A stretch of 14,617 nt of DNA from Candidatus Eiseniibacteriota bacterium (GTDB lineage Bacteria > Eisenbacteria > RBG-16-71-46 > SZUA-252): assembly GCA_031370645.1 (NCBI GenBank), contig JANMQV010000177.1, positions 1 through 14,617 on the forward strand. Reading direction: 5' to 3'. The position numbers are program-made. The number at the start of each line of letters is the position of its first letter. Within the stretch, counting starts at the first letter, position 1. Shown here in pieces: positions 7,701 through 10,700 of the stretch.

Positions 7701-10700
7701 GACTACGCCACCGCGCTCACGTTGAGCCGCGAGGCGCTGTCGATCGCGGAAGAGCGGGGGTACGCTCGGGAGCGCGTGGTCATTCAGGAAGCGATCGGCG
7801 ATATCTACGCCGAGAAAGGCGAGTTCGATCTCGCCCGCCGCGCCTACGACACCACCTACTCCCTCTCCGAGCAGATTGCCCCCGAGTCCGACCTCACCGT
7901 GCAGATCATTCGCCGCCTCGGCGATCTCGAGTTGGCGGTCGGCAATCTGGATGCCGCCACGCGCCACGCCGATCGGACGCTCGATCTGGCGCGCCGCCTG
8001 CGGGATCGGTACGAGGAGGGTTGCGGGCTTCGCCTCTACGGGCTCATCCGCGCGGAAGCGGGCGACCTCGAAGCGGCGGCCGCCGCGCTCAGCGAAGCGG
8101 GAGAACTCTTCAGCACGCTTGGCATTCGCTACGAGTTGGCCCGGCTTCAGATCGCCGCCGGCGTCTCCTGGCGGCGCCGCGCTCGCCGCGGCAAGTCGCG
8201 CGGCGTGCTCGACCAGTCGGTCGCGTTCCTGCGCCGCGCGGTCGCGAGTTTCGAAGGGCTCGCTGTTCCCGCCTGGACGTCGCGCGCGCTTCTGGAATTG
8301 GCGCGGAGCGAACTCCTCCGCGGCCTCGTGGACGAAGCGGTCATTCACGTCGACTCAGCCTCCTCGCTGATTCCGAGCGAAGACGATCCCACGTTGGCTC
8401 GGGAAATCGACGAGTTCCGCGCCGAGATCGAGCGCGGGCTGATCGAGGGGACCTCGTCCTCCAGCAACGAATTCGCCGCCTTCGAAGAAGTTCGGGACGT
8501 GCTCCGTCGCGGCGACGCCGATGCGGCCGTGCAGGACGTTCTTTCGGTGGTGGCCCGCCGCACGAACGCCACCCGCGGATTCGTGTCGGCGCCGTCCACT
8601 TCGGGCTCCCTGGAAATCGTCGGAGCGCTCGGCATCGCGCCTCGTTCCGCCCACGAACTGCTGGCCGAGATCGATCGCCGCGTCGGCTCGCCCCGGCTCG
8701 CCTCGGCCCCGCTCGTCGCGAGCCGCGCCAGTGCCGACGAACGATTCCGCGACCTTCCTGCCTCGGCCCACGTGGGTCCGCGCACGACGATCGCGATCGT
8801 TCCGCTGCCGCTTCCCTCGGGCCAGCCCGGCTACCTCTATCTCGACCGGAGCGAGGACGGCCCGTTCGGCGCCTTCAAGCAGCGCGAAATCAATCTCATG
8901 GCCGTTCTGGCGAATCACGTGGCGATGGCGATCTTGGAACTGCAGCGCCAGAAACTGGCGAATGAGAACAGCGCGCTCCGCGGGCGGCTACTCGGCTCGG
9001 CCAACGAACATGGCATCGTCACCCGAAGCCCCGACCTGCTCGAGATCCTCTCGTTGCTCGATCGCGTCGGACCCTCGGACGCCACGATTCTCATCGAGGG
9101 CGAGACGGGAAGCGGCAAGGGCCTCCTGGCGCGCGCCATTCACGCGTCGAGCACCCGTGTTCAGAAGCCGCTCATCACCGTGAACTGCGCCGCGCTTCCC
9201 GAGCACCTGCTCGAGAGTGAGCTCTTCGGCCATGTGCAGGGAGCCTTCACGGGTGCCGTGCGCGACAAGGTCGGACTTTTCATCGAAGCGAACGGCGGTA
9301 CCATCTTCCTCGACGAAGTCGACAAGACCTCGATCACCATCCAGGGCAAGCTCCTACAGGTGCTCGATACGAAGGAAGTGCGCCCGGTCGGCGGTAACCG
9401 CGCGACCAAGGTGGACGTGCGCGTCCTCTGCGCCACCAACGTGAATTTGAAGGCGCGAATCGCCCGCGGCGAGTTCTTGGAGGACCTCTTCTACCGTCTG
9501 AACGACATCTGCTTCCGCGTGCCGCCACTCCGCGAACGGCCCGAGGATGTTCCGATCCTGGTCGAGCACTACGCGCGACGCTACGCGGCCGAGATGGCGA
9601 AGGATATCCGGGGGATCGATTCCGAGTTGATCGGGACGTTCGCCGGGCTTCCGTGGCGCGGAAACGTGCGCGAGTTGGAGAAGGTCGTGAAGCGGATGGT
9701 GGTGATGGCGAACGACGGCGATTCGCTTTCGCTGCGCTTGGTTCCGAAGGAGCTGCTGAAGGTCGAGGAGGAAGTGTCTGAGGGACCGGCAAGTCTCCGT
9801 GCCGAGGTGGCGAAGGTGGAGCGCCGGCTCATCGCGGGGGCGCTGGAGCGCCACAATTGGAACAAGCTCCAGGCCGCGAAGGAACTTTCGCTCAGCTACC
9901 CGACCCTCCTCCAGAAGATTAAGATCTTCCGGCTCGATCGCCGGACGGTGATTCGGCAAAGAGCTTAAAAATCTTGTATAAAGGAATTTGATATACCTAA
10001 ACCCATGCACCGCATGGGTTTTCTTTTTTTTGCCTCCGCGACTAGCAAGTTTCTATTAAACCAACTGTCAACAAGACCCCATCCGAGGACACAAACGGGC
10101 GCCGCGACCAGGTGGTTAACTCGTTTTTTGATTTAGCATTACGGACTTAATTCACCCATCGATAAGGTTCCTCTCTGGATGGCACGTCGGATGCTTTGAG
10201 TATGGCCCGGAGGGGGGGACCTCCAACGAGCCCGCAGGTCCAGACAGCGTTGGGCCATGAGTTAGCGGCCAGAAAAGGCACCGGCCCTTTTCGAAGACGC
10301 GTAACTCGACAGGAGCTGTCAGGGCCGGGGCTCAATTTTTAAGAGATGACGGCGGCATTCCGAAAGGGGTGCCGCCGTTTCTTTCTTGGTGCACGGCCCG
10401 CCAGCGGGCTCGGCAGCACGCTTGGTACCCTTGCCGAATCCTGTATCCGCGCCGTCACACTGTTCTCTGCGTCACACCCTTTCGTTTATTCGCGCGAAAA
10501 TCCTAGACCCCTGTAAGACGCTGTATTGAAGCAAGTTGCCGCTGAATTCAGGCCCGCCCGCGAAGTGGCACGCGCGTTGCGATAGCCCTCCTATGTGAAG
10601 GACCCGAAGTTTTAACGTGCGAGGAGGGCAAAAGCCATGAACGGTGCCATGAAAGCGACGCTTACCGGACTTGCCATGCTGGCGCTTCTCGGCGCCACGG

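Follow-up and report, generated by a model that had tools for sequence, protein, structure and literature searches.

A Predicted Sigma-54-Driven Small RNA Behind a TPR-GAF-AAA+ Activator Gene in Candidatus Eisenbacteria and Its Putative Pairing with the Activator mRNA and a Sister RNA

Introduction

Several bacterial small RNAs are linked to sigma-54 activators or pair with other RNAs; they are described here from the available parts of the sources cited. In Vibrio, Qrr1-5 repress the luxO mRNA of a sigma-54-type activator in a negative feedback, and separate pairing regions of Qrr serve different targets (PMC3262071). In Myxococcus, the Pxr gene is located about 260 nt behind the gene of the sigma-54 activator PxrR/Nla19 and has its own sigma-54 promoter; the RNA consists of three short stem-loops with a conserved first loop, C-rich as read from the primer and probe sequences in the paper, and a variable 3' part (PMC5568312, PMC5684412, PMC11928866). 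The available parts of these three sources describe no feedback pairing of Pxr on pxrR, and a TRIC-seq preprint, as far as available, reports that Pxr binds near Shine-Dalgarno (SD) sequences (10.1101/2025.09.11.675593). QrrX of V. cholerae is a regulatory RNA that pairs with another one (PMC9732341), and RosA of B. subtilis presents open G-rich stretches to C-rich seeds of another RNA (PMC8216469). NfeR1 of Sinorhizobium targets the operon of its own regulator, NtrBC, by pairing at the translation-initiation region (PMC10746234).

Ca. Eisenbacteria is an uncultured phylum of soil and sediment. Regulatory RNAs of uncultured phyla seldom have a testable target; the locus studied here offers exact pairing predictions together with natural compensatory variants. 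The window is a stretch of 14,617 nt (contig JANMQV010000177.1, assembly GCA_031370645.1), in which a first-pass annotation had marked an uncalled RNA behind a sigma-54 site. The RNA was not found described in the Eisenbacteria literature on small RNAs and sigma-54 outside subscription journals and supplements, nor in the available part of a CsrA survey that names Eisenbacteria (PMC13443453); motif lists in supplements could hold it. Conservation was followed in the family of the window genome, hereafter the host family (41 genomes, four genera; the order contains no other family), and in 151 genomes of the phylum, including G054, which is marked unpublished and enters only the phylum tallies. 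Other families are referred to by number (f2, f3, and so on).

Results and Discussion

Small RNA Gene, Promoter, and Fold

The small RNA gene was placed on the plus strand at 10206..10341, with a start set by the geometry of the sigma-54 site and an end at a U run. Its -24/-12 promoter (TGGCAC-N5-ATGC) occupies 10180..10194 on the same strand, and 14 nt separate this site from the GGAGG hairpin, which begins at 10209. Alignment of the upstream regions placed TGGCA-N7-TGC 14-15 nt ahead of the hairpin in 38 of 38 host-family loci, which confirmed the sigma-54 site proposed earlier just before a GGAG- and G-rich hairpin; the promoter also occurs in other families. The 5' hairpin (GGAGG-GGGGGA-CCUCC, 10209..10224, plus strand) includes a putative G-rich seed (10212-10222), is a phylum-wide module, and was invariant at all 16 positions in the 37 full host-family copies. 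It is followed by a long interrupted rod of 106 nt (10228..10333, plus strand), a presumed scaffold with covariation in the inner helices and a sequence that varies between families. The apical loop CACCGGC (10279-10285), invariant in the same 37 copies, and the adjoining stem constitute a second putative seed (10279..10289, plus strand), which is complementary to 6820-6829.

The predicted fold, a 5' hairpin and a single interrupted rod, had a z value of -3.3, and none of 200 shuffled sequences was equally stable, in agreement with the single rod ending in a U run that had been described. The U run at 10341 was likewise found where the first-pass annotation had ended a 133-nt RNA; in the window genome and its closest relatives, however, a second, strong intrinsic terminator with a GC-rich hairpin and a U tail lies at 10348..10388 (plus strand), so the transcript may reach about 180 nt in the window genome. 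Metatranscriptome contigs of relatives from four runs covered 10206-10383, two of them continuing through the promoter; these are contigs only and carry no start, strand, or level. Small portions of the window occurred in 19 runs. Comparison with all of Rfam 15 yielded nothing near a gathering score, and no reading frame was stop-free in more than 10 of 37 copies; both negative statements of the first-pass annotation, no Rfam family and no open frame across the RNA, were thus upheld. A 62-aa minus-strand ORF was rejected since its frame is not kept, as was a sigma-54 promoter mimic within the rod, whose UGGCA is not invariant. The gene, promoter, fold, linkage to the activator, and conserved complementarity are evident from the sequence, and a stand-alone, sigma-54-driven, structured small RNA outside any Rfam family is supported.

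Conservation and Covariation in the Host Family

BLAST detected the small RNA in 38 of 41 host-family genomes, including 25 of 25 near-complete ones and all four genera, and the three genomes without a match are 60-78% complete. The covariance model gave one match per genome in 37 of the 41. The conservation through all four genera reported earlier stands. Copies were 71-98% identical to that of the window; the earlier range of 74-94% came from fewer genomes. Two-sided changes, also noticed before, were observed in 11 of 33 pairs of a plain alignment and in 16 of 40 pairs of a model-fitted one, in which 96.7% of 1437 cells were paired; the fitted alignment leans towards structure and kin are not independent, and 0 of 500 shuffles reached its values. 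G-U cells outnumbered A-C cells (77 vs. 13), which indicates that the small RNA is encoded by the plus strand.

Activator Locus and Neighboring Elements

The gene preceding the small RNA (6831..9968, plus strand) encodes a TPR-GAF-AAA+-HTH sigma-54 enhancer-binding protein of 1045 aa, according to Pfam, with an intact GAFTGA motif. Its orthologues were detected in 143 of 151 phylum genomes (E <= 1e-120), and it is the probable activator of the small RNA. The spacing between the two genes was 240-247 nt in 37 of 38 host-family loci. This interval contains an imperfect palindrome, TATAAA-N5-TTGATA, just past the activator stop (9977..9993, unstranded; second half-site at 10053-10060), which is conserved in the upstream alignment and is a candidate enhancer that the activator may bind. 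A terminator-like hairpin with a U tail (9999..10031, plus strand) follows the activator gene in close relatives only. An A/T-rich TAA...TTAC element (10115..10143, unstranded), with TAA and GTTAC blocks conserved in the 38 upstream regions, presumably resembles an IHF site.

Downstream, a separate sigma-54 promoter (10566..10580, plus strand), not part of the small RNA, serves the operon of a lipoprotein gene (g00735), and two GTCACAC repeats lie upstream of it (10454..10477, unstranded), sharing a 6-mer with the promoter region of the sister RNA described below. A TATYAA-type motif accompanied 37 of 37 small RNA promoters and 0 of 31 downstream promoters; a GTCACA-type motif accompanied 26 of 31 downstream promoters, 19 of 19 sister-RNA promoters, and 1 of 37 small RNA promoters, both patterns having been chosen after viewing the alignments.

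Directly upstream of the activator gene, a small putatively exported protein of 105 aa (6440..6757, plus strand) has a signal-peptide-like N terminus and a Pro/Gly/Asp-rich middle with GDGDG. In 57 of 65 genomes this place was taken by a small ORF whose N terminus is hydrophobic, and a G(D/E)PD-like motif, read by eye, was present in most other families. No Pfam or NCBIfam model matched the protein, which is a candidate signal precursor.

Range across Ca. Eisenbacteria

Among the 151 phylum genomes, the covariance model gave 36 weak matches outside the host family. All 20 of these that were examined had a sigma-54 promoter and the hairpin, and 17 of the 20 were located 239-396 nt behind an orthologous TPR-GAF-AAA+ activator. 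Together with 56 loci chosen by the activator, 76 outside-family loci were obtained. A canonical or variant hairpin followed a sigma-54 site in 68 of the 76. Of the eight misses, five had a degenerate hairpin (four of them in f8), two fell at contig ends, and one had the hairpin behind a variant promoter. Across 16 of 17 families, the promoter and 5' hairpin thus stay with the orthologous activator, and the first-pass view of an RNA restricted to one family does not hold. None of four second-best paralogous activators checked had the hairpin. A metagenome scan with the promoter-hairpin pattern, blind to neighbors, returned at least 120 matches; among the 80 matches listed, all 61 with sufficient flanking DNA had the activator upstream. 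The pattern was not found in viral contigs. Of the named records with the 5' motif, 25 of 34 were titled Ca. Eisenbacteria, the other nine titles probably being depositors' labels of related bins.

The body of the RNA differs by family, from the single rod of the host family to as many as four or five modules in f2 and f7, whose long versions terminate in a rod that bears a second GGGGA loop and is followed by a U tail. Twenty loci of other families, compared with Rfam, gave nothing at gathering score. The RNA family is about 105-500 nt long, modular, and absent from Rfam.

Predicted Pairing with the Activator mRNA

In the window, the apex (10280-10289) could form 10 bp with the activator ribosome-binding site (RBS) GAGGGCCGGT (6820..6829, plus strand), which stands directly ahead of the activator ATG and is the predicted target of the apical loop. 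The match spans 6-10 bp across the host family, in which GAGGG[CT]CGG, spacer included, directly precedes the ATG in 25 of 25 genomes; in the control, 28 lipoprotein leaders, the spacer was not conserved. At codons 5-6 of the activator, GTCCCC (6843..6848, plus strand) may represent a weak remnant of a C-run that matches the G-loop elsewhere; it was present in 10 of 25 host-family genomes and was not above background in the window genome. At the equivalent place, 10 of 10 f2 genomes carry ATCCCCCCCG, so that the f2 G-loop faces a C7 run at codons 5-7, predicted to be in an open loop in 5 of 5 folded cases, and f7 has a C6-C7 run at the activator codons in 4 of 4 genomes.

Matches to the own activator, built from different sequences, were also found in further families: 12 bp at the apex in f11, 12 bp in f14, where the match tracks the family's variant hairpin, 11 bp in f8 (2 of 2), where the degenerate 5' hairpin itself complements the RBS, 11 bp in f5, 8-10 bp at the apex in f4 (2 of 2), 7-8 bp in f17, and 6 bp in f12 (2 of 2). 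The matched sites all touch the RBS, the spacer, or the first codons, the exceptions being f14 and some of f10, whose sites lie about 25-40 nt upstream. No convincing self-match was observed in f6, f13, f16, most of f3, and 2 of 3 f9 genomes.

A family-level test included 48 genomes (8 of the 25 host-family genomes and 40 others) from 17 families, which are related to one another. After removal of row and column effects, the own partner was favored by 2.74 kcal/mol (nominal p 1e-5), as calculated with an in-house helix-plus-accessibility script. Seven shifted control windows gave +0.25 to -1.27, so the own-partner effect is about twice the largest control; four of the seven had nominal p < 0.02, which means that the permutation p of the test is inflated. 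All RNA ends and eight start codons had been placed manually after inspection; two of the hand-set starts (G051 and G117) are out of frame with the aligned match; for G051, an in-frame start places the 11-bp site just before the ATG. Within the host family, own and foreign partners scored alike (-18.9 vs. -18.8) because both sides hardly vary.

In the window genome, the activator ranked 5 of 2445 genes for the match of the apex to the RBS when mRNA structure was left out. With mRNA structure, it ranked 116 for the apex, 672 for the G-loop, and 184 for both. Energies from a single genome do not single out the activator as the target.

Sister RNA of a Paralogous Cassette

A second cassette, consisting of a small exported protein, a TPR-AAA+ activator, a sigma-54 site, and an RNA, was found on contig C20 and in 39 of 41 host-family genomes. 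In f2, the sister RNA carries GGGGCUCGUACCC, the reverse complement of the f2 apex of the small RNA. The two were complementary over 9-15 Watson-Crick pairs in 11 of 11 genomes with both RNAs (12-15 in 10 of them), and in G146 a one-base insertion is matched on both sides. The 12-mer of the sister motif is expected by chance only a few times per genome. The same motif stands behind the paralogue in G044 and G049 and was not found in the 1.2 kb examined behind the G069 paralogue. In f7, a sister match of 11 bp was located at the homologous apex in one of two genomes, and f14 showed an 8-bp match at its variant G-loop.

In the host family, the sister motif GGGUCCCCCCC (C20:27485-27495 in the window genome) is the complement of 10212-10222, the G-loop seed, with a match of 10-11 bp. 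Its GGTCCCCCC was invariant between variable flanks in 30 of 30 loci and was the longest complement in 28 of 29 pairs, with net energies of about -9 to -11 kcal/mol. This C-motif, of uncertain strand, lies 21 nt behind the stop of a convergent gene, and a U tract precedes it in 8 of 28 genomes, that of the window included. For all 31 matches the opposite strand gives the better fold, partly owing to G-U bias; position and fold suggest that, instead of a complement, it may be the same G-loop motif borne by the opposite transcript.

Searches of f4, f8, and f11 detected no sister-RNA promoter, and a close paralogous activator was not found in 11 genomes from f3, f5, f6, f9, f12, f13, f15, and f16. 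Five sister-RNA loci compared with Rfam gave nothing at gathering score except one tRNA. Two other pairings were rejected: that of the sister RNA with the RBS of its own activator, which reaches 10 of 11 bases in the window genome although that RBS varies, and that of the apex with the host-family sister RNA, for which net energies were weak. A genome-wide, energy-only search for a C-loop partner returned 281 candidate hairpins and no ranking.

Proposed Circuit and Alternative Explanations

Pairing over the RBS or the first codons normally blocks ribosome loading. From the conserved complementarities we propose, as the reading with somewhat better than even chances, a feedback circuit in which the activator drives the RNA, the RNA masks the start region of the activator mRNA and limits activator synthesis, and a sister RNA competes for one seed. 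The active TPR-GAF-AAA+ protein would turn on sigma-54 transcription of the downstream small RNA, whose stiff rod would display two short seeds, the G-rich 5' loop and the apical loop. One seed would cover the translation start of the activator mRNA, reducing the activator in a negative feedback, and the other would meet the complementary stretch in the RNA of the paralogous cassette, resulting in mutual titration of the two circuits. In the host family, the apex would take the activator RBS and the G-loop probably the sister RNA; in f2, these roles would be swapped. What we infer here are transcription, activation by the TPR-GAF protein, intracellular pairing and its repressive effect, and the direction of sponging between the two RNAs. 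Further mRNA targets beyond the activator are likely. The pairing predictions are checkable without culturing the organism. If the circuit is real, a feedback like the one in Vibrio quorum sensing has evolved anew, here with another class of activator and no Hfq, and small RNAs provide communication between two paralogous sigma-54 circuits.

An extended version of this circuit, which is unlikely, at about one chance in five, adds the exported protein. Peptide-sensing TPR regulators exist in Firmicutes, and the small exported protein next to a TPR activator recalls them. Two parallel cassettes, each with an exported propeptide, a TPR sigma-54 activator, and an RNA, would then have their peptide read by the TPR domain, the RNA shutting its own activator and a target-mimic sister RNA releasing it. 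A single prediction of the complex between activator residues 30-560 and small-protein residues 33-72 scored 0.02 against a mark of 0.32, which weighs neither for nor against binding, and a literature search on TPR sigma-54 activators in peptide signaling found nothing related. Should this version hold, it would amount to a phylum-wide, Hfq-free peptide communication network wired by loop-loop RNA pairing, with seeds swapping partners in evolution.

The alternative that survives best, although we consider it improbable, is that the GGGGA-loop hairpins act as a decoy titrating an RNA-binding protein (CsrA or another), the complementarities being side effects. CsrB, CrcZ, and GlmY are RNAs that titrate an RNA-binding protein, and sponges of the CsrB/RsmZ type carry many unpaired GGA motifs. 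A GGGGA loop is present at the 5' end, again at the tip of the terminal rod of long versions, and perhaps next to the sister RNA on the minus strand. A stand-alone csrA occurs in 132 of the 151 phylum genomes, the window genome yielded no FliW, and f8, which has no CsrA, has the degenerate hairpin. However, f3 has no CsrA either (0 of 7 genomes) and retains an intact hairpin in 6 of 6 loci, as do f11 and G067. CsrA sponging as the sole role was therefore rejected, CsrA being missing where the hairpin is intact and co-loss occurring only in f8. The small RNA has only two or three GGA motifs, two of them conserved and one in a stem, and was not among the ANGGA clusters of the window genome. A decoy would also leave unexplained the matched changes in f8, f11, f14, and G146.

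Slightly less probable still is a global trans-acting RNA like Pxr, which would reach other mRNAs via the G-loop or the ACCUCC arm, the latter resembling an anti-Shine-Dalgarno sequence, with the self-match as a minor feature. Many genes outscore the activator in the window genome, GGAGG occurs in 156 of 811 leaders by a rough gene call, and several families have no self-match; yet no other conserved target was identified, though none was sought across genomes, and the predicted fold places the ACCUCC arm in a stem. We give a lower probability again to an RNA that is mainly a sponge neutralizing the sister RNA or another C-rich small RNA, as RosA does with RoxS. Such a role would suit the open G-rich loop, the long perfect match to the f2 sister RNA, and the invariant C-motif of the host family, but the RNA persists in families where the sister cassette was not found, and in f4, f8, and f11 it complements the RBS of its own activator instead.

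A 5' leader or attenuator of g00735, an option that the first-pass annotation had left standing, or a divergent housekeeping RNA (6S, SRP) is very improbable: the lipoprotein gene follows in 31 of 35 informative host-family loci and, among the matches listed, in 52 of 58 metagenome loci, and in f3 and f4 an ORF stands close behind the RNA with no obvious terminator, but terminators intervene at the host locus, the spacing to the activator is fixed, the downstream gene is missing in the other 4 of the 35 loci, lies at a varying distance, and has its own promoter with a different motif, and a canonical 6S RNA (RF00013, 88.8 bits, C126), which the small RNA does not match, and a canonical bacterial small SRP RNA (RF00169, C204) are encoded elsewhere.

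Comparison with Described Systems

The proposed circuit resembles Qrr-LuxO in that a small RNA stands behind a sigma-54 promoter (38 of 38 loci) with a linked enhancer-binding protein, by which it would be activated. Qrr RNAs depend on Hfq, and no Hfq match was found in the 95%-complete window genome. Unlike Qrr, the small RNA carries its putative seeds in the loops of a rod, and it showed no sequence or structure match to Qrr up to E 10 in a search of all of Rfam 15. Unlike LuxO, the activator is a TPR-GAF protein and not a phosphorylated response regulator, scoring 233 bits against a LuxO cut-off of 800. The position directly downstream of a sigma-54 activator gene, the own sigma-54 promoter, and the conserved first loop are shared with Pxr; the loop is G-rich, however, the fold is a hairpin and one rod, there is no Rfam match, and PxrR, according to the available parts of the Pxr sources, is a two-component regulator. 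A conserved segment complementary to another small RNA recalls RosA and QrrX in f2 (11 of 11 genomes) and, less surely because of the strand, in the host family, but both Eisenbacteria partners belong to parallel activator cassettes with sigma-54 promoters, and the matching seed differs between families. NfeR1 departs from the proposed circuit in that NtrC represses it and its target is a kinase mRNA, as the available part of the source states (PMC10746234). In the proposed circuit the small RNA would combine a logic like that of Qrr-LuxO with a layout like that of Pxr and an RNA-RNA match that recalls QrrX and RosA; it is a member of none of these groups.

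A paralogous cassette and the genes behind the RNA

The genome of the window (G000, GCA_031370645.1) carries a paralogous cassette on contig C20 (positions 24140-27560, L340), which comprises a small exported protein, a TPR-AAA+ activator of 823 aa, a sigma-54 site, and an RNA, referred to here as the sister RNA. The sigma-54 site of this cassette has almost the same sequence as that of the main RNA in the window. No match to the sister RNA was found in Rfam. Cassettes of the C20 type were present in 39 of the 41 genomes of the window family, and a conserved AAAAAAC-AAAUACGCCCGGUCAACGAAG module forms the end of the sister RNA in two other families of Ca. 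Eisenbacteria (f2 and f7).

The genes downstream of the main RNA (window 10637-14617) encode a lipoprotein-like protein that matches no Pfam family, a DUF4384 protein whose tail is repetitive and rich in Gln and Arg, and a protein with an M6-family metalloprotease domain; the gene of the last is incomplete and runs into the contig end. GTCACA/TGTGAC repeats (at C20 upstream of 27299 and at window 10454-10477) are common to the sister RNA promoter and the lipoprotein operon promoter, respectively; because of these shared repeats, the C20 activator may drive the lipoprotein operon. Elsewhere in G000 (C157:33289), a sigma-54 site with two TATYAA motifs lies directly 3' of another enhancer-binding-protein gene and 5' of the sole Hsp20 gene of the genome.

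Regions behind the RNA in other families

In f8 (L113 and L120), the RNA is followed, approximately 220-310 nt past the promoter, by a second element that is conserved and rod-like and carries a U tail (GGGAAGCGGCUCCCUUC...GCCGCUUCCC). In f3 and f4 (L109, L118, and L123-L128), an ORF with a conserved DQFEYL motif at its start was observed so close behind the RNA that the two may be co-transcribed.

C-rich stretches, a leader resembling the RNA 5' end, and CsrA

In the window, the gene of the small exported protein is preceded by a C-rich segment (6299-6317) that was predicted to pair with the 5' end of the main RNA, with a duplex energy of -30.8 kcal/mol. Three C-rich repeats were found in one upstream region of G000 (C13:8919-8975). 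On the minus strand at C11:195, the leader CCGGAGGGGGGACCGG, nearly the same as the main RNA 5' end, precedes an ATG, and the frame from this codon resembles a protein kinase start.

CsrA was absent from f3, f8, and f11. The stand-alone csrA of G000 (C131:99439-99594, L159) encodes Asn55 and a C-terminal extension, which are features of FliW-controlled CsrA; FliW was nevertheless not found in this genome.
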